This document shows, piece by piece, positions 29,891 through 42,097 of a DNA stretch of 64,000 nucleotides. The translations under genes were made by a program, and so were the position numbers. Positions within the stretch are counted from its first letter, which is position 1; each line of letters begins with the position of its first letter. Below the pieces are notes generated by a model. That model did not search any database. It worked only from the letters and a program-made list of their open reading frames with translations, and was not told where the DNA came from. The stretch comes from Deltaproteobacteria bacterium HGW-Deltaproteobacteria-4 (GTDB taxonomy: Bacteria; Desulfobacterota; Desulfuromonadia; Desulfuromonadales; UBA2197). Location of the stretch: assembly GCA_002841765.1 (NCBI GenBank), contig PHAV01000006.1, forward strand, positions 1,446 to 65,445. Reading direction: 5' to 3'.

Positions 29891-29937
29891 TTTGGTGGAG
29901 CTGAGCGGGATCGAACCGCTGGCCTATGCATTGCGAA
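29891..29937 (-). repeat. att direct repeat (displaced 3' half of tRNA-Ala), copy 1
   Basis: 47 bp identical to 42020-42066, ending exactly at the anticodon loop. Confidence 0.95.
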
Positions 29938-30138: not shown

Positions 30139-31401
30139 ATGGCCTTCACCGATCCATATGTAAGAACCCTCAAGACGACAAAGCGGATTGAAGACTTTCG
30201 AGAGAAAACGGGCGACGGTTTTGGAATCCGCTGCTATGCCACCGGCACAAAGGTCTTTTTCTTTGCCTATCACTTCGACAGCAAGCCACGATATTTGAAC
30301 TTAGGGAAATATCCCGCATGTTCGCTTGCCGATGCTCGAAAAAAGCATAGGGAGGCGCAGGGGAAACTGGATAAAGGGATTGATCCTCTGGCTGAAAAGG
30401 AACAGGCGGAAGCTGACCGTAAAAAGACCCCGACCGTTGCTGAGTTAATCGAAGAATACATGACCAAGCACGCTAAGCCCCATAAGAAGGACTGGAAAAA
30501 AGACGAATGCTGCCTCAAAAATGATGTCCTGCCCGCTTGGGGGAATCGTAAGGCTTCAGACATCAAGAAACGGGATGTCATCCTTCTTTTGGAAAGTATT
30601 TTAGAGCGGGGCGCGCCCATCCAGTCGAACAGCGTGCTGGCTGTCACTCGCAAGATGTTTAACTTTGCCATAGAAAGAGATATTTTGGAGTACAGCCCTT
30701 TTGTTGGGGTCAAACCTCTCGGCCCCAAGGTAGTTCGTAAGCGCTATCTTGCAGAAGACGAGATAAAAACATTATGGGGAAATCTTGCTGTAGCTGGTAT
30801 GACCGATGAGCTTAGGCGGGCATTGAAATTGATATTGGTAACGGCGCAGAGGCCGGGAGAAGTCATAGGGATGCATCGGCGTGAGGTTAACGGGCACTGG
30901 TGGTCGATCCCAGCGGAGCGCGCCAAGAATAATCGTGAGCATCTTGTTTACCTCACGGACAGGGCTATCGAATTAATTGGTGACAAAGACGGCTTTATTT
31001 TTGAGTCTCCTCGCGGGGGTAAGCCGATTGATGTTAATGCGCTTGCTAATGCGGTAAGACAGAACTGCCCGACAGATTGTTGCTTTGATCTCAGTTGTTG
31101 CCAGAATGAAGAGTGCAAGAAGGTCGGTCGCGAGTGTGCTGAGAAGAATAGGCTGGGAATTGTTTTCTTCCGACCGCATGATCTGCGGCGCACGGCGAAT
31201 ACCCACATGGCTCGGATGAAGGTTCCCCTGGAACACCGCGAGGCGATTTTGAATCATGCGATGGGGACGCTGGATGGGACCTACAATCTTCATGATTATC
31301 AGGATGAGAAGAGGCGAGGTCTTGAAAGATTAGGGCGGGAACTTGGAAAAATAATCAGCGGCAAGGAGTCGGGGGAAGTGTTTTCCACCGCGGCCAGTTA
31401 A
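30139..31401 (+). CDS. int: Tyrosine integrase with N-terminal arm-binding domain (P4-like)
   Basis: GFGIRC...KVFFFAY...YLNLGKYP..SLADAR, AQRPGEV, HDLRRT, ILNH, GTYN. Confidence 0.95.
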   Translation: MAFTDPYVRTLKTTKRIEDFREKTGDGFGIRCYATGTKVFFFAYHFDSKPRYLNLGKYPACSLADARKKHREAQGKLDKGIDPLAEKEQAEADRKKTPTVAELIEEYMTKHAKPHKKDWKKDECCLKNDVLPAWGNRKASDIKKRDVILLLESILERGAPIQSNSVLAVTRKMFNFAIERDILEYSPFVGVKPLGPKVVRKRYLAEDEIKTLWGNLAVAGMTDELRRALKLILVTAQRPGEVIGMHRREVNGHWWSIPAERAKNNREHLVYLTDRAIELIGDKDGFIFESPRGGKPIDVNALANAVRQNCPTDCCFDLSCCQNEECKKVGRECAEKNRLGIVFFRPHDLRRTANTHMARMKVPLEHREAILNHAMGTLDGTYNLHDYQDEKRRGLERLGRELGKIISGKESGEVFSTAAS

Positions 31402-31709
31402 ACCTCGCGACACATGTCGGTCAGTTTATAAATTATTTATTGTTTTGTCAAAAAATTCTTGATTTTTATTTTCCTATTAGTTATTGTTGCTCAACTTCGT
31501 TTCATAGTGCGCCAAGACTCGGCGGCGGACAGGACTTGAGCGGTTCAAGACCTCATCCAAAGAAGTAGCCGGTCATTCTCTCAAAAAACTGAATACCACG
31601 TGAAAGCGGTTCGTCCTTGGCAGGGCGATTTGGGATCATGCAAATAGAACTGGCTACCCTGAGAAATCGGGGTAGCCTTTTTGCGTTTCAGGCCGCAAAG
31701 GAGATTATG

Positions 31710-31943
31710 ATGAGTGAGAAAAAGAAAAAGGATGTGGAGATTGTATTGGTGAGTGGAGAGCAATTTTTCACAAAGCGTCAGGTAATTGCAATCACGTCAC
31801 GGAGTGCTACTAGCCTGCACAGAGACGTAAAAGCACAACGATTTCCTGCGCCTAAGAGCCTGGGCCCACTTCGTATTGGCTGGTTGAAAAGCGATATTAA
31901 CGAATGGTTAAACAGCCGTCCTTTGGTTTCAACTAAAAAATAA
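31710..31943 (+). CDS. alpA: AlpA-family regulator/excisionase
   Basis: QVIAITSRSATSLHRDVKAQRFPAPKSLGPLRIGWLKSDINEW. AAGGAG RBS, start 31707 or 31710. Confidence 0.85.
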   Translation: MSEKKKKDVEIVLVSGEQFFTKRQVIAITSRSATSLHRDVKAQRFPAPKSLGPLRIGWLKSDINEWLNSRPLVSTKK

Positions 31944-32542: not shown

Positions 32543-34105
32543 ATGATGAACATGAATGAGGCTAGCGTGCAGGCTAGCCAGATTCAGGAAGATGAATTTT
32601 TCGACGAGACTGTTCCCCACGAGTTCCTAAACTATAAAAAATATATCACAAACCACCCTGAAACTCACGAGATATTGGCTTCTTTCCCTGATCGAAAAGA
32701 AGCAGAGAACGAAATTTATGGAAGAATTGAAGAAGAAACTTATAACCCACTTTTGGCGTGTAGCCTTACCACTCAGATTGGCAAGCGACACCCCAGCTGT
32801 AAGCCGGCCCGAGATAAATATGCTGTGATCAGGTGGGAAGAGCGGAGTCAAATCAAAGAACAGCGCAAGATTAACCGTGTGAGCGGGGGCAAGGTGGACA
32901 TACTTGATGACCGTTTGGAAGATGCATATGAAGATTGTCGTCAAGCATTAATATCAGGAAATCGCAACGCCCTTAACTCTTCATTGGTAAAGCTCCAAAG
33001 TTCGATTCGACAATACTGGAGCGATTACACCAAGCTTGCCAGAAAATATATTTCTGCTGACTGGAGTCCACCAGAAAATAAAATAACTTTAACCGATTTG
33101 CAGAATCGGCCTTTATTGGATTTCGTACTCTCGATTGATGAACTTGTAAATTTGGATTTGCCGGAGCGCGAAAGCATCATTGCCCCTTTTCTCCCAGCAC
33201 AGTCCTTATCAATGGTATTTGCGCCCCGTGGTCTTGGTAAAAGTTGGTTTTGTATGCAACTCGCTCTAGCCGTGGCTGATGGCCGTAAGTTCTTTGCGTG
33301 GGATGTCCCAGCGGCTCGTCGCGTCCTATACATTGACGGAGAGATGCCGCAAAAAACACTCGTGGATCGATTCAGGTCGTTGAGCCATGGCTTGCCAAGC
33401 ATCCTTGACGTCTTGTCTTCTGAACGTTTGTGGATAGATGATCGGGGACTGAATTTGAATCTGGTCGAAGATCAAGCCCGAGTAAGCGAGCTTTTGGAAC
33501 AGATGGACTCTGTAGGTCGCCAGCCTGAGTTGATAATTATTGATAACCTGTCCAGTATGACTTCGGGCGGCGATGAAAATAGTAATAGTGAACTAGACAA
33601 TCTTTTGCAGTTTTTGGTTCGTTTGCGCCATAAAGGATTTGCGATTTTACTTGTTCATCATTCAGGTAAAGGCGGAGATCAGCGCGGAGCATCACGGCGA
33701 GAGGATTTACTTGACACCTCGATCAAGTTGAATGCGGTTAAGAACGGAGAGGTATTGAAGGGGGCAAAATTTGAAGTCGAGTTCGTCAAGGTGCGGGGTG
33801 AGCGACCGAATCCCGATAAATTAGAGGCTGAGCTAATTACTGGTGAACATGGTTGTCTTGAATGGTCTATCGGCAAAAAAGTCACCCTGTCGCCGCAAGC
33901 AAATTTATTGATAGCAATTAGGGATATTTTACCAAAGAATCAAGGAGATCTGGCCATTCATCTTGCCGTTAGCCAAGCTGCCGTTAGCCAGCAAATTAAA
34001 AGGGGTCGTGAAAATGGACACATCACGTACGACAAAAAACCTACCTTGACGGATCAGGGTATGGCCTATTGTGAGAAGATTTCTCCGGCAGGGGATCAGT
34101 TTTAG
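32543..34105 (+). CDS. AAA_25/RepA-like SF4 helicase with C-terminal wHTH (replication protein)
   Basis: APRGLGKS, LYIDGEM, LIIIDNL, LVHHSGK, RGASRRED, HTH-like tail QGDLAIHLAVSQAAVSQ. Confidence 0.85.
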   Translation: MMNMNEASVQASQIQEDEFFDETVPHEFLNYKKYITNHPETHEILASFPDRKEAENEIYGRIEEETYNPLLACSLTTQIGKRHPSCKPARDKYAVIRWEERSQIKEQRKINRVSGGKVDILDDRLEDAYEDCRQALISGNRNALNSSLVKLQSSIRQYWSDYTKLARKYISADWSPPENKITLTDLQNRPLLDFVLSIDELVNLDLPERESIIAPFLPAQSLSMVFAPRGLGKSWFCMQLALAVADGRKFFAWDVPAARRVLYIDGEMPQKTLVDRFRSLSHGLPSILDVLSSERLWIDDRGLNLNLVEDQARVSELLEQMDSVGRQPELIIIDNLSSMTSGGDENSNSELDNLLQFLVRLRHKGFAILLVHHSGKGGDQRGASRREDLLDTSIKLNAVKNGEVLKGAKFEVEFVKVRGERPNPDKLEAELITGEHGCLEWSIGKKVTLSPQANLLIAIRDILPKNQGDLAIHLAVSQAAVSQQIKRGRENGHITYDKKPTLTDQGMAYCEKISPAGDQF

Positions 34106-34367: not shown

Positions 34368-34775
34368 ATGGCGTTTGTGAAAGGAAAGTCAGGCAATCCC
34401 TCAGGAAGACCGGCCGGAGCCGGCAGAGTCGCCAAACTTCGAGCAATGCTCGAACCAGAAGCACCCGCGTTGATTCAGGCGGCGATCACGGCGGCCAAGG
34501 GTGGCGATATGATCGCGATGCGCCTATGTCTTGATCGCTGCGTACCGGTACTGAAGGCCGTCACTGAGGCTGCACCATTGTCGGTGGACTTAAGCGGAAC
34601 CGCCGTCCAACAAAGTCAGGCAATATTGACGGCTGTTTCTGATGGAGTGTTGTCCATAGAGGAGGCCACCCAACTTCTCGCGGGAATCGCTTCAAGCATG
34701 AAAATTCTCGAAATTTCGGAAATGGAAAAACGACTTGAGGCGCTGGAAGAGGCCGCCGGTCAAGGAGGCAGGTAA
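34368..34775 (+). CDS. DUF5681-type, terminase-small-subunit-like protein
   Basis: MAFVKGKSGNPSGRP N-terminal motif, AGGAGG RBS, coiled-coil tail. Confidence 0.7.
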   Translation: MAFVKGKSGNPSGRPAGAGRVAKLRAMLEPEAPALIQAAITAAKGGDMIAMRLCLDRCVPVLKAVTEAAPLSVDLSGTAVQQSQAILTAVSDGVLSIEEATQLLAGIASSMKILEISEMEKRLEALEEAAGQGGR

Positions 34776-34978
34776 TGAATCGCTCAAGGTTGACTCGTCT
34801 GGAAGAGAAGATGACGCCCATCCCGCCTCGTCACTATCTTGACCCTACCACCGGCTGGCACGTCATCGGCGGAGGAAAAGGATCGGTCGGAGTGCTTTAT
34901 GCGCCGCCGATTCTCAGTAAAGAGGAGTGGCTGGCCGCAGGAAATAAGATCGCGGAGGCTTCGGAGGATCAATTCTGA
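34775..34978 (+). CDS. Hypothetical protein (67 aa)
   Basis: Coupled TAATG overlap with the upstream gene. Confidence 0.6.
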   Translation: MNRSRLTRLEEKMTPIPPRHYLDPTTGWHVIGGGKGSVGVLYAPPILSKEEWLAAGNKIAEASEDQF

Positions 34979-35031
34979 CGCCTTTAATCACTCGCGGAGA
35001 TAGAAACCCTAACCCCCAAAGGAGCTTGATC

Positions 35032-35214
35032 ATGAAAAAGAATGTTTTATCAACAAACGGAGCGCAAAGCATGACGCCGAGTAACCAGCCCGACAAGGCC
35101 AACGATCTGACCGGAGCGCGGAAGGAGATCGAGAAGCGCAAGAAGGACAACGTCGCCAGCCTTGGAAATTCCAACGGCTCAACCGGTGGCAACATCACGA
35201 AAGGAGGAAACTGA
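35032..35214 (+). CDS. Hypothetical low-complexity protein (60 aa)
   Basis: AAGGAG RBS. Stop overlaps the next start (TGATG). Confidence 0.55.
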   Translation: MKKNVLSTNGAQSMTPSNQPDKANDLTGARKEIEKRKKDNVASLGNSNGSTGGNITKGGN

Positions 35215-35972
35215 TGATTACCGCCGCCCTCAAAAAATATCATCCGTCTCTTGTATCAATGAATCATGACATTAATGCAGATCTTGCCGACTTTCATTCT
35301 GCCGTCCTCCTCGCCGTAAAGCAGTACGAGAAAGTCATCGAGGAAGCCGGAAAAGTATCTGACGACCTAAAGCCAGAGGTGAGAAGGAAGCGTCAACAAG
35401 AGATCGTCGCCAAAGCCTCTGATCAACTCCAATCAGAAGTTGATAAGGCTGCACAGCCGTACAAGGTTGCAACCGGCGAAATCCGGCAAGAGATCGAAAA
35501 CGCTAGTCGCCCAGGTATTCATAAAACCGAGACAAGCGAACTGATCGCCCTTATGAAGGCACAAGAGATCCGGCGCGTGATGTCCAGCATGAGCACCGCT
35601 GAAGCGGGGCAGCTCTTACGAGCTTCCGTGGCTGTAGGTGATCCGACCATACTTCACGCTCTGGAAGGTTTCATTGTACCGCTCGTATCGGCTCCGGTTA
35701 TGGAATTGGCGCAACAGACTTATAAGGAAACGGCCATGCCGGATCGGCTTCAAGCTCTGGCGTTGTCCGAGGAGTACGCCGGAAGCGTTGGCACAACGCA
35801 ACGATTCGTTGAATCAGCTGCGCGGGCGATTGCTGAAAAAGCTGGTCTTGGTGAGGTCTACGCTGGGCGAGGAGAAGGGAAGAGAAGCGAAGTGTTAAAT
35901 CTGAGTGATGCCGAAAAGGCCGAGTTTATTGGAGAGAACGGCCTTTCTCTCTTTAAAGAATTGATCAAATAG
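35214..35972 (+). CDS. Helical hypothetical protein with a scaffold-like C-terminal motif
   Basis: AGGAGG RBS. C-terminus KRSEVLNLSDAEKAEFIGENGLSLFKELIK. Confidence 0.7.
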   Translation: MITAALKKYHPSLVSMNHDINADLADFHSAVLLAVKQYEKVIEEAGKVSDDLKPEVRRKRQQEIVAKASDQLQSEVDKAAQPYKVATGEIRQEIENASRPGIHKTETSELIALMKAQEIRRVMSSMSTAEAGQLLRASVAVGDPTILHALEGFIVPLVSAPVMELAQQTYKETAMPDRLQALALSEEYAGSVGTTQRFVESAARAIAEKAGLGEVYAGRGEGKRSEVLNLSDAEKAEFIGENGLSLFKELIK

Positions 35973-36051: not shown

Positions 36052-36453
36052 CTATTTAATCAATCGGGAAATCAAGGCTGCATGTCGAGAGGGTTGGCTA
36101 ACACCCTCTATCCAATCTACCAGAAATGCAGTGTCAGCACCCACCTTACGATAGGCTAACACCCCCCGCTCAATGGCCTCGTCACTGAGGTAAGTGGGGA
36201 GGAGCCCGTCATCCTCGATCATTTCGATATCTTTTCTAATGGCTCGATCTTCCAGTCCCATTTTATCAAAATCCGGCGAATCCCAAAATTTATTTGGCCC
36301 TTTCACTCCTATCATGGTGGCTTCACGCGTTTCATCATGGTGCCAAACACATAGACCATCATAAATTTCGTCACCAACTAAAACCACCACTTCGGTATCA
36401 CCCCACTGAGCCAGATGGTTTACTAGGTCTCTGATCAATTCAGAAGTATTCAT
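36052..36453 (-). CDS. Hypothetical acidic protein
   Basis: 133-aa ORF with AGGAG upstream. No family recognised. Confidence 0.6.
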   Translation of the reverse strand: MNTSELIRDLVNHLAQWGDTEVVVLVGDEIYDGLCVWHHDETREATMIGVKGPNKFWDSPDFDKMGLEDRAIRKDIEMIEDDGLLPTYLSDEAIERGVLAYRKVGADTAFLVDWIEGVSQPSRHAALISRLIK

Positions 36454-38672: not shown

Positions 38673-39896
38673 ATGATTTTTAGCATTGAAAAAGCGATTG
38701 AACTTATAAAAAATAGCGGGGGCAAACAGACTGAGCATCCAGAATTCATGGCTATCGCTTCACATTGGCTTCAATCGCCGGAGTGTGTCCCTACTTGGGG
38801 GAATCATGAATTGAAAAACAAATGGTTAAATGTTTTATTGGCAGGGTTTTCCCTTCGGACCCAAGATGAGCTTATAAAATTAATATCCAATTCATATAGT
38901 TTTCCGTTCCCTCCATGTGAAAACCCCAAGTTTAGATTTATTGATTTATTTGCTGGAATTGGGGGGTTTCGAATATCTTTACAGGATTTGGGGGGAAAAT
39001 GCGTTTTTACAAGTGAGTGGGACAAAAACGCAAAACAGACATATTTTTCTAATTATGGTGAGATGCCATTTGGTGACATTCGTCAATTTACAGACCCAAT
39101 AACTATTACTGATGAAACATTAGACCAACTTATTCCCGATTTTGATATTTTAGCCGCTGGATTTCCTTGTCAGCCATTTAGTCTTGCGGGTGTATCAGCA
39201 AGGCAGTCGCTTGGAATTAACCATGGTTTTTCGTGTGAAACACAAGGGACCTTGTTTTTTGATATTGTCAGAATCGCAAAAGTGAAACAGCCCAAGATAT
39301 TACTGTTGGAAAATGTCAAAAACCTGAAAAGTCATGACGGAGGGAATACATTTCAAACAATCAAAAAAACTATTGAGGATGATCTCGGTTACTCATTTTC
39401 GCATAAAATTATAAATGCTAATACGGTAGTACCTCAAAATCGACAACGCTGTTTCATGGTTTGTCTTAAAAATAGGGATACGGATTTTGTTTTTCCAACA
39501 TTTGAGGGGGATCCATTACCCCTTGAGTCGATATTAGAAGAATCTCCCCCTGAAATTTATACAATTTCAGACAAACTCTGGGCAGGTCATATTTCTCGCA
39601 CTAAACGCAATATGGATAGAGGCACAGGTTTTTCGGCCTTTGAGGCAGATTTGAAGAAGCCGTCAAATACAATTGTTGCGAGATATGGCAAGGATGGTAA
39701 GGAATGTTTAATCCCTCAGGATGGAAGAAATCCTCGTATGTTGACACCGAGGGAGTGTGCGCGCCTCCAAGGGTTTCCTGAAGAATTTCTAATCCCTCAA
39801 GGAAAAACAATGGCGTACAAGCAATTCGGTAACTCCGTACCTGTACCAGTAGTCAGAAAAATAGCTAAAGAAATACGCGACCGTTATCTTTCATAG
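38673..39896 (+). CDS. dcm: C5-cytosine DNA methyltransferase (Dcm/EcoRII/SsoII-like)
   Basis: FIDLFAGIGG, GFPCQPFS, ENVKNL, QNRQR, TIVARYGKDG, LTPRECARLQGFP, YKQFGNSV. Confidence 0.93.
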   Translation: MIFSIEKAIELIKNSGGKQTEHPEFMAIASHWLQSPECVPTWGNHELKNKWLNVLLAGFSLRTQDELIKLISNSYSFPFPPCENPKFRFIDLFAGIGGFRISLQDLGGKCVFTSEWDKNAKQTYFSNYGEMPFGDIRQFTDPITITDETLDQLIPDFDILAAGFPCQPFSLAGVSARQSLGINHGFSCETQGTLFFDIVRIAKVKQPKILLLENVKNLKSHDGGNTFQTIKKTIEDDLGYSFSHKIINANTVVPQNRQRCFMVCLKNRDTDFVFPTFEGDPLPLESILEESPPEIYTISDKLWAGHISRTKRNMDRGTGFSAFEADLKKPSNTIVARYGKDGKECLIPQDGRNPRMLTPRECARLQGFPEEFLIPQGKTMAYKQFGNSVPVPVVRKIAKEIRDRYLS

Positions 39897-39921
39897 CTAC
39901 AATATATAGATTGTAAAAGTT

Positions 39922-40344
39922 ATGACCGATGTTATGACACCCACACAACGCAGTAATTGCATGTCAAAAATTAAAAACAAAAATACAAAACCTGAATTGA
40001 AGTTAAGAAAAGCTCTCTGGAATGAGGGAATTAGATACAGAATCAACACGAAATTGACCGGCAAGCCGGATATAGTATTTACTTCAAAGAAGATTGCGAT
40101 TTTTGTGGACGGTTGTTTTTGGCATTGTTGCCCAATTCACGGCACATCACCAAAATCAAATGTTCCCTTTTGGGGTTCAAAACTTCAAAAAAATATTGAA
40201 CGTGACGCGAAAGTTAATCAGCTACTAAAAGAATCAGGTTGGAATGTTTATAGAATTTGGGAACACAAAATTGATTCGGATATTGTTGGTGTTATTTCCA
40301 GTATCAAGACACTTTTGGCGTCAAGTGGCAATCACCTCTCATGA
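39922..40344 (+). CDS. vsr: Very short patch repair endonuclease
   Basis: TDVMTPTQRSNCMS, TKPE, GKPDIV, FVDGCFWH, GWNVYRIWE. Confidence 0.95.
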   Translation: MTDVMTPTQRSNCMSKIKNKNTKPELKLRKALWNEGIRYRINTKLTGKPDIVFTSKKIAIFVDGCFWHCCPIHGTSPKSNVPFWGSKLQKNIERDAKVNQLLKESGWNVYRIWEHKIDSDIVGVISSIKTLLASSGNHLS

Positions 40345-40788
40345 TTTTGTAGAGCGAAATTGGTAGAGCCAGTCTTTCATTTGTTCTGGCGTGCGTTCTA
40401 GCCACCCCTTTTTTTTTGTTAGGTTGTATAGCCAGAACTCAGTACAGTCTTCTCTGTATAGAACAACACGAGCCTCAACACCGAGTATTTTTGCTATTGA
40501 TGTAATAACTTTATATTGAGCATCTCTGTTAAACCTATCAACTATCGCATTGAGGTAATTTGTGGTTACGGCAATCCCACTTTCAACCATAGTGATCTCA
40601 TTCACAGATAACGGTACAACCTCACCATTAATAAATTTGTATTCTATGCAGTCTATATCTTGCATATATAGTTCTCTTCCTTGTTCACGATGCCACTTCA
40701 AATAATTTTCGGACCTATCTACATGGCCCTTGTCTGAACGCTGTACAGATTTGCTTCCCTGATCGTTTATAATCTTTTCCAGTGGCAT
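40339..40788 (-). CDS. Small putative PD-(D/E)XK-like protein
   Basis: WHR...QDIDCIEYK...NEIT pattern. Same strand as, and just downstream of, the HNH gene. Confidence 0.5.
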   Translation of the reverse strand: MPLEKIINDQGSKSVQRSDKGHVDRSENYLKWHREQGRELYMQDIDCIEYKFINGEVVPLSVNEITMVESGIAVTTNYLNAIVDRFNRDAQYKVITSIAKILGVEARVVLYREDCTEFWLYNLTKKKGWLERTPEQMKDWLYQFRSTKS

Positions 40789-40813
40789 AATATATCTCCT
40801 TTCCAGTAGTTAA

Positions 40814-41701
40814 CTACGCACCATAAATTCTGAGAATATCCGTAAAAGAAATTTCCAATCCCCTCAATGCTAAACGCTCATGACGTGCTTCAAAGAGGTG
40901 GCGCAGAAGCACAGCTTTTGCCGTTGGTTGTCCATGGTGAAGTGTCCTATGGCAAACTGGGCATAAAGCTACAATGTTATCCGCAACATCTAATCCGTTA
41001 ACAAACTCATTTTGCGAGGAAATGGGGATAAGGTGATGCCCTTCTACAAATGGGTTGCCTGTGGCTGCACTTATAAAGGTCCGATGAGAGTTGTCTATTT
41101 CACAGCAATAGTGAGCCGCCCTTGCAGCTGATAGCCCTAATCTTGGGTCGCGTGGGTATGTCATTCCTGTCCTGCTTACAGGAATGCTGGCCGCGACTGC
41201 TCCTATCTGGTTTTGATAAAAATCATCTTCATCATCAATATTGACCCCAGCACGGAAATTTAGAGCCGATGCTGACATTGCCGTTGAAAATAGATTGTTC
41301 CAATCTGCCGTTGACATAAATCCAACATGCGGACAAGCCTCTCCCCGACGTGAAAAAATAAACCAAATATCGGTAGCTGTGGGGTAGAACTGGCTAGAGC
41401 GAGAGAAATAAAGCCGTAATTCATTCCCCTGGCGCTTTGGGTATACTACGACAATCTGATTTGTGGAGGTGTGCCCCGAAGGTGCGTGAACTACCATAGT
41501 CCAGTCTTCTGGTTTACCGTCTGGCGCGGCCCCACCTCGACGGGTAAATCCACTTAACGGGTAACGGCCTTCCAGGACAGCTTTTTCATCAGAGTCTACG
41601 GTTACACTCTTATCTCCCGTAGCCTCGCGATCGGTTACTACCGAATATGCTCCTCGCTCAGCACCAAAATATCCACACATGTACCTGTCAAACATTGGCA
41701 T
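40814..41701 (-). CDS. HNH endonuclease with uncharacterised N-terminal domain
   Basis: CEIDNSH...FVEGHHLIP...NIVALCPVCHRTLH. Start placed at ATG 41701. Confidence 0.88.
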   Translation of the reverse strand: MPMFDRYMCGYFGAERGAYSVVTDREATGDKSVTVDSDEKAVLEGRYPLSGFTRRGGAAPDGKPEDWTMVVHAPSGHTSTNQIVVVYPKRQGNELRLYFSRSSQFYPTATDIWFIFSRRGEACPHVGFMSTADWNNLFSTAMSASALNFRAGVNIDDEDDFYQNQIGAVAASIPVSRTGMTYPRDPRLGLSAARAAHYCCEIDNSHRTFISAATGNPFVEGHHLIPISSQNEFVNGLDVADNIVALCPVCHRTLHHGQPTAKAVLLRHLFEARHERLALRGLEISFTDILRIYGA

Positions 41702-41944
41702 AAAGCACCTCTCCCAGAAAGAATTATTGTCCCGAATCAACCGGTGTATAGCGGGACAGTGACACATGTATGGTTAGCTGTCAACCCGAAAAAACATATA
41801 TATTTACCCCGTAAGTGACGGGGTAGAAAATTTTGACGTTAATTCGGGATTTTAAATCTTGTGCTCAAACTTCTCGGGAATCTTGGTGAGCCTTTGGATT
41901 GTGGCAGTGGAATAGTATTTGTTTCAGAGATGAGAAATGGCGAG

Positions 41945-42019: not shown

Positions 42020-42066
42020 TTTGGTGGAGCTGAGCGGGATCGAACCGCTGGCCTATGCATTGCGAA
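42020..42066 (-). repeat. att direct repeat, copy 2 (within the intact tRNA)
   Basis: Identical to 29891-29937. Confidence 0.95.
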
Positions 42067-42097
42067 CGCATCGCTCTCCCAACTGAGCTACAGCCCC
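42022..42097 (-). tRNA. tRNA-Ala(CGC)
   Basis: 76-nt cloverleaf GGGGCTGTAGCTCAGTTGG...TTCGCAA...GGTTCGATCC...CCACCA, with G3:U70 and encoded CCA. Confidence 0.97.

Follow-up and report, generated by a model that had tools for sequence, protein, structure and literature searches.

Gene content of the island

The window, a stretch of 64,000 nucleotides from Deltaproteobacteria bacterium HGW-Deltaproteobacteria-4, carries an island of 12,129 bp bounded by perfect 47-nt direct repeats, which bears out the "12-kb genome" of an earlier sequence-only reading. The left copy of the repeat (attL) lies at 29891–29937 and the right copy (attR) at 42020–42066, where it forms the 3' part of a tRNA-Ala(cgc) gene on the minus strand (42022–42097). 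On the plus strand the island encodes a tyrosine integrase (30139–31401; phrog_1, E = 2.7e-59, with Pfam Arm-DNA-binding and Phage_integrase domains), an AlpA-type excisionase/regulator (31617–31943; PF05930, E = 4.6e-7) and an AAA_25 helicase/replication protein (32543–34105; PF13481, E = 1.6e-37), the last of which was also matched by PHROG DNA primase/helicase families. An HTH protein is encoded as well, and the cargo comprises an HTH_3 regulator, a resolvase, Dcm, Vsr, an HNH nuclease and four ORFs that matched no family. Pfam and PHROG scans of the island ORFs found no capsid, portal, protease or TerL genes.

The gene under study, P0001, is the last of a translationally coupled four-gene operon on the plus strand. 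The operon is headed by a TerS-like gene (34368–34775; DUF5681, PF18932, E = 5e-7), whose stop codon overlaps by 1 nt the start of a 67-aa ORF (34775–34978) that is weakly conserved in the related locus L005. A 62-aa ORF follows at 35026–35214, directly upstream of P0001, with the pattern NGAxxMTPSxxPDKANDLxxxRKxIxxRK...SLGNSNGSTGGNI. The P0001 ATG at 35214 overlaps the TGA of this ORF by one base and is preceded by a strong Shine-Dalgarno sequence, AAAGGAGGA, at 35200–35208 (the whole initiation region spans 35200–35216). The 62-aa ORF had no family match in Pfam or PHROG, and it is strongly conserved at the same position in L001, L003, L004 and L005. Because it is both conserved and translationally coupled, it may be an obligate, CpmA-like partner of P0001.

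In Burkholderia phages such as PE067, homologs of the DUF5681 protein are the product of the opening gene, immediately ahead of TerL, and are annotated as the terminase small subunit. From this resemblance and the gene content, the island resembles a satellite of the PICI type whose packaging gene is TerS-like. Its features are those by which PICI-like satellites are recognized, namely a size of about 10–15 kb, att sites, an integrase, AlpA, replication and packaging-redirection genes, and no virion structural genes.

The right part of the island (38673–41767) holds Dcm at 38673–39896 and Vsr at 39922–40344, followed on the minus strand by a 149-aa ORF that matched no family (40339–40788) and an HNH nuclease with a long N-terminal domain (40814–41767). 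This Dcm–Vsr–HNH cargo looks like a restriction-modification-like defence cassette. Just downstream of P0001 lies a 133-aa ORF that matched no family, on the minus strand (36052–36453); a homolog occupies the same position in L039 (13152–13556, minus strand), and the resolvase gene comes next in both elements.

The P0001 protein and its family

As the sequence-only reading had quoted it, the ORF at 35214–35972 (+) encodes an all-helical protein of 252 aa ending in GEGKRSEVLNLSDAEKAEFIGENGLSLFKELIK. It consists of a body (residues 1–219; 35214–35870, +), which was confidently modelled as a helical fold without a known relative, and a scaffold-type tail (residues 220–252; 35871–35969, +). AlphaFold2 gave a pLDDT of 83 with eight sequences, and a pLDDT of 95.1 and a pTM of 0.80 with a 52-sequence alignment. 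In the latter model the body helices span residues 25–46, 54–98, 106–124, 128–140, 160–174 and 176–209.

The family is rare and satellite-associated. Among 5.8 billion clusters, only eight close homologs were found, with 48–86% identity, and a profile search of 1.84 billion proteins returned 91 representative relatives at E ≤ 1e-3. Apart from a few fragments, these matches span much or all of the body and never the tail alone; at the level of HMMER, no other family sharing just the tail was detected. The family is present in nine of the 401 genomes of the host class and also in metagenomes. Whole-protein tblastn against 50,697 phage genomes yielded no informative match, and a search with the family over genome contigs and viral contigs found no relatives. 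No close members were found in IMG/VR either, and hence that collection supplied no evidence of encapsidation.

P0001 and 52 relatives had no match in Pfam, PHROG or PDB sequences, and none of the 52 scanned relatives fell into a known family. Foldseek searches with two P0001 models against PDB and one against BFVD returned no E-value below 0.05; the best structural neighbours had E-values of 0.08 in PDB (TM ≤ 0.29) and 0.17 in BFVD. ClyA and AhlC were among the top matches; they are generic long helical bundles with TM values below 0.3, and we did not regard them as meaningful.

We then looked at the genes surrounding the relatives. The order (integrase)–AlpA–primase–DUF5681–small ORF–small ORF–family member is kept in L003, L005, L039 and L168. 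In the L041 element (G143:C131, 1324–3997), which measures about 9 kb and further encodes an integrase and a DUF3987 primase, a tail-less member is followed by TerS and TerL with no capsid gene, and in L138 (3278–5664) TerL is followed directly by a tail-bearing member, again with no capsid gene. Indeed, no capsid gene was present in any of the contexts inspected (the window, L001, L003, L005, L038–L041, L138 and L168), which indicates that the P0001 family is satellite-associated and belongs to a packaging/late module. The short metagenome contigs that carry distant relatives had no informative gene context.

Some of these elements differ from the window in detail. The member in L039 (G131:C56, 12201–12818) has only 205 aa and no tail, and its surroundings are syntenic with the window, including homologs of the window cargo. 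Decayed copies of the element were seen in L029 (G123:C169, 958–2096) and L001 (9397–10762), where a truncated integrase or a fragment of the arm-binding domain adjoins the family protein, either in full or reduced to its final 45 aa. Because an integrase remnant adjoins the family protein in both, these copies appear to have arisen by internal deletion.

Occurrence of the tail in phage scaffolds

The sequence-only reading had stated that many phage scaffolding proteins end in a motif of the type KRSEM...EKA.YI.EHG..A...L. This was correct: the motif is present in phage scaffolds such as those ending in GGSQKRSEMSASEKADYIRKHGQQAFLKLPK and KKKRSEMSQAEKAAFIGKHGQDEFFKLPA. Tail-only tblastn against the 50,697 phage genomes was likewise uninformative, and a word-indexed search with the tail retrieved the query alone. 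Because the tail is too short for BLAST, we scanned for degenerate DNA patterns derived from the family consensus.

The stricter pattern, EKAA[FY]IxxHG, had eight matches in IMG/VR, all of them in frame and 19–25 aa from the C-terminus. All eight carrier genes lie immediately upstream of a phrog_247 major head gene; their products comprise phrog_206 head scaffolds, one C-terminally extended S49 head-maturation protease, and two coiled-coil proteins that remained unclassified. The wider pattern, M[ST]xxEKAx[FY]Ixx[HN]G, was found in IMG/VR at 54 loci (fewer than one expected), with the motif 22–29 aa from the end in 48 and a capsid ORF directly downstream in 44; the P0001 body occurred at none of the 54. 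Among 185,579 species genomes the wider pattern matched 10 loci, nine of them C-terminal and eight with a downstream capsid ORF, in hosts that span Pseudomonadota, Gemmatimonadota and Acidobacteriota. JGI metagenomes contributed 52 loci, about 31 of which are scaffolds with a downstream capsid ORF and three of which are members of the P0001 family; we read the remainder as chance-like or unclassified. In these scans, the wider pattern thus lay almost exclusively 22–29 residues from the end of proteins whose genes immediately precede a phrog_247 head gene.

The cultured relatives of the tail-bearing scaffolds include Escherichia phage PHB10, Klebsiella prophages, and Pseudomonas phages phiAH14a, Medea1 and PseuP_222, and the PseuP_222 relative is annotated as "scaffold protein". 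Phages with the EKAAFI-type tail have genomes of 40–58 kb. The scans also picked up a 512-aa phage protein with the motif NMSREEKAEYIRKNG 69 residues from its C-terminus (L064, L069, L083 and L086 in IMG/VR; L146 and L181), which has no capsid gene directly downstream.

Likeness of the P0001 tail to scaffold tails

P0001 itself matches neither scan pattern, having L for M, E for A and N for H. Because it lies outside both patterns, it is a fair test case for a tail HMM built from phage proteins. Such an HMM, made from 25 phage scaffold tails, scored P0001 at 28.7 bits (E = 1.2e-6). Among 29,673 six-frame ORFs of the host, P0001 was the sole match to this phage-only HMM, the next best ORF scoring 9.8 bits. 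In the reverse direction, a tail HMM derived from the P0001 family scored phage tails at 37 bits, compared with 33 bits for P0001.

Alignment of the P0001 family with the scaffold alignment by hhalign (95.6%, E = 1.3e-8) covered 33 columns, all in the tail, and left the bodies unaligned. The body of P0001 is thus not akin to those of phrog_206-type scaffolds, as the PHROG search, which returned no match, likewise indicated. K235, I239 and G243 are invariant in the close P0001 family, and in a gapless joint alignment with phage scaffold tails conservation is again highest at these K, I and G positions. G243 is, moreover, nearly invariant across the 52-sequence family alignment, a property that only two other columns share. 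Taken together, these comparisons support a P0001 tail that, as far as sequence can tell, is indistinguishable from one widespread type of phage scaffold C-terminus, with a likeness beyond chance. The architecture proposed by the sequence-only reading, an unknown helical body joined to a scaffold-like tail, is thereby supported: the body had no match among known families, and the tail is of a widespread phage scaffold type.

In the AlphaFold2 model (overall pTM 0.80), the tail has a pLDDT of 84–94 and forms a helix at residues 232–242, a turn at G243 and a second helix at 244–251. Phage scaffolds carry the tail after a Gly-rich flexible linker, whereas the linker in P0001 is short. Given this short linker and the high-confidence model of the tail, the P0001 tail may pack on the body.

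The tail as a module

The EKAAFI tail occurs on at least four unrelated kinds of body, namely phrog_206 scaffolds, the S49 protease, two unclassified bodies and the P0001 family. Conversely, ten phrog_206-like scaffolds that were picked solely by body homology have other tails (e.g., MNPKDLAAHI...), yet the capsids they go with are also phrog_247. Of 97 sequences in the P0001 family, about 40 have the tail and about half lack it, including more distant members of 200–230 aa. Three distant family members, P0014, P0034 and P0076, have two tandem copies of the tail, for example HLSDSEKAALVGKVGLEGFKSIL... followed by DADKEAFAAKHGGEAWEKFIAGEW. This distribution fits a scaffold tail that is a separate, swappable module, as would be expected of a transferable docking tag. 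Because about half of the wider family is without the tail, the body of the P0001 family probably has a role of its own.

Between the GenBank phages L014–L023 on the one hand and L007, L009 and L012 on the other, homologous phrog_206 bodies carried at least three unrelated tail types (EKAAFIxEHG, MNPKDLAAHI and others), all together with phrog_247 capsids.

Search for a helper phage

At 3.02 Mb, the host assembly has an estimated completeness of 100%. A phrog_247 capsid gene is absent from it, as is any further ORF ending in a P0001-type tail, and 233 genomes of the host order likewise lack such a capsid gene and any scaffold with this tail. A phrog_247 capsid gene is present in two of the 401 genomes of the class, in both cases in prophages, and the scaffolds encoded there end in other tails. 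Searches with the tail pattern and the tail HMM in the 401 class genomes and in the 233 order genomes recovered the P0001 family itself and no matching scaffold. Loose matches to the tail pattern in the class genomes were mostly the N-boxes of histidine kinases and were set aside. Thus, no helper phage for the island was found in the host genome, the 233 order genomes or the 401 class genomes.

Proposed role of P0001

Characterised scaffolds attach to the inner face of the capsid protein by such a C-terminal segment. We consider it an even prospect that P0001 is a satellite-encoded alternative internal scaffold that docks on the phrog_247-type capsid protein of a helper phage. P0001 would then be a late-operon protein of a PICI-like satellite, composed of a family-specific helical body of about 220 aa and a helix-turn-helix tail of 30 aa, with the tail being of the type found at the extreme C-terminus of scaffolds and protease–scaffold fusions in phages with a phrog_247 major head protein. 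On infection by a helper, P0001 would sit at the site where the helper capsid protein binds its scaffold, either competing with the helper scaffold or taking its place, along the lines of CpmB of SaPI1 and Rcm of SaPIpT1028. The outcome would be remodelled procapsids, probably smaller ones to suit the 12.1-kb element, together with interference with the helper. The 62-aa partner would perhaps act with the folded P0001 body in altering assembly, and the TerS-like neighbour would redirect DNA packaging to the satellite.

We infer capsid binding, competition with the scaffold and a change in capsid size by P0001, and these steps do not all carry the same weight. Redirection of capsid size is the less certain of them, at rather less than even chances. 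Accordingly, the capsid-scaffold mimic put forward by the sequence-only reading was sustained in two respects, since a scaffold tail does sit on a novel body and the gene does lie in a capsid-less satellite beside a TerS-like gene; its analogy with P4 Sid was not, since hhalign of the P0001 family with Sid and with Psu gave a probability of 0.2% and the analogy thus fails at the level of sequence. A broader proposal, which we offer tentatively, is that MTxxEKAAFIxEHGxxAFxxL is a portable, cross-phylum capsid-docking tag of the scaffolds of phrog_247 phages that a satellite lineage grafted onto a helical body of 220 aa, and that this body, the 60-aa partner and the TerS-like protein set a new, smaller capsid geometry.

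An alternative that we judge unlikely, though it shares the same tail evidence, is that P0001 is purely an interfering decoy, which blocks or derails assembly of the helper procapsid at the scaffold site and yields no functional small capsids. The satellite would in that case be packaged as multimers in heads of normal size, or not at all. The Dcm–Vsr and HNH nuclease cargo of the island would suit an element that acts against phages in this manner, and four copies of the 12.1-kb island would amount to about 48 kb, which is inside the 40–58 kb range of the tail-bearing phages. A precedent is also available in PICMI-type satellites, which are reported to be packaged as concatemers in a capsid that is not remodelled (PMC10803314). 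However, an operon that is conserved and includes a TerS-like gene points to productive packaging of the satellite, and interference accompanies size redirection in CpmB, Rcm, Sid and TcaP alike.

Less probable still is that P0001 is an adaptor linked to packaging, with a body that works with the terminase and a tail that tethers it to helper procapsids, or else that the tail loads P0001 into capsids as cargo. Family members always lie beside genes of terminase type (DUF5681 in the window and L005, TerS and TerL in L041, and TerL in L138), and the tail-less members imply a function of the body that is independent of the tail. On the other hand, scaffold tails bind the inner surface of the capsid, whereas the terminase acts outside the portal, and a terminase partner with a scaffold tail has no precedent known to us. 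The capsid-morphogenesis genes of SaPIs also adjoin terS.

Finally, it is improbable that the tail is an integral fold element or a generic protein–protein motif that resembles scaffolds by convergence and that P0001 has a non-capsid function such as regulation or replication, for although the motif is short, was modelled confidently together with the body and came without a helper, it recurs in four collections almost only in scaffold-position proteins and the P0001 family, its likeness extends beyond the searched residues to an upstream K/R-R-S-E-M, the same C-terminal distance and the conserved K, I and G, and its tandem copies in P0014, P0034 and P0076 behave like a modular tag.

If P0001 is indeed an alternative internal scaffold, internal-scaffold mimicry would reach into a distant lineage of bacteria and involve a new protein family and fold, and P0001 would be the first such mimic described outside the staphylococcal SaPIs. 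The relatives with no tail and with two tails would then show that the tag has been gained, lost and duplicated, and the body would represent a new fold for size determination. The short, searchable tail would mark both the phage scaffolds of one capsid type and the satellite proteins that probably target them, and it could thus serve as a practical handle for predicting satellite–helper pairs from sequence. A modular tag on a folded body would also provide a clean system for studying how scaffold geometry sets capsid size.

Comparison with known systems

To our knowledge, experimentally established cases of capsid remodelling by satellites are few (Sid, CpmAB, Ccm, TcaP and Rcm), and mimicry of an internal scaffold is known to us from staphylococcal SaPIs only. 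P4 Sid (244 aa) and PLE TcaP are helical, satellite-encoded proteins of similar length to P0001 that determine small capsids. They act outside the capsid and without mimicry of a scaffold tail.

The phage proteins comparable to P0001 are the phrog_206 scaffolds and the S49 protease–scaffolds of phages with phrog_247 capsids, whose C-terminal motif is of the same type, lies equally far from the end and agrees in its conserved K, I and G positions. P0001 differs from them in that its body is not homologous to theirs, its gene is not beside a capsid gene, and the Gly-rich linker is missing. Its body is also predicted to be a compact folded bundle, whereas the scaffolds consist of a coiled coil followed by a disordered linker.

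Among satellite proteins, SaPI1 CpmB, which has its counterpart in gp46 of phage 80alpha, resembles P0001 in being encoded near terS in a capsid-less satellite, in being all-helical and in sharing its C-terminus with a scaffold. The capsid contacts of CpmB and of the 80alpha scaffold are the same, being made by a C-terminal helix-and-hook common to both, and it is the N-terminal body that determines capsid size (PMC5644958). CpmB is a protein of 72 aa with an RIIK helix-and-hook motif from a Firmicute system, whereas P0001 has 252 aa, a confidently folded body and the helix-turn-helix MTxxEKAAFIxEHGxxAFxxL, and comes from another host lineage; the two are likened by architecture and not by sequence. 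Rcm of SaPIpT1028 is a larger, multi-helical scaffold mimic that is necessary and sufficient for the formation of small capsids, and it has been proposed to compete with the helper scaffold via shared motifs (PMC12409344). The motifs of Rcm run along the whole helper scaffold, and Rcm has experimental support, whereas the likeness of P0001 is confined to the last ~30 residues and is known from sequence. SaPI1 CpmB and SaPIpT1028 Rcm are the closest parallels of P0001, which would follow the same logic with a different motif, size, fold and host lineage.
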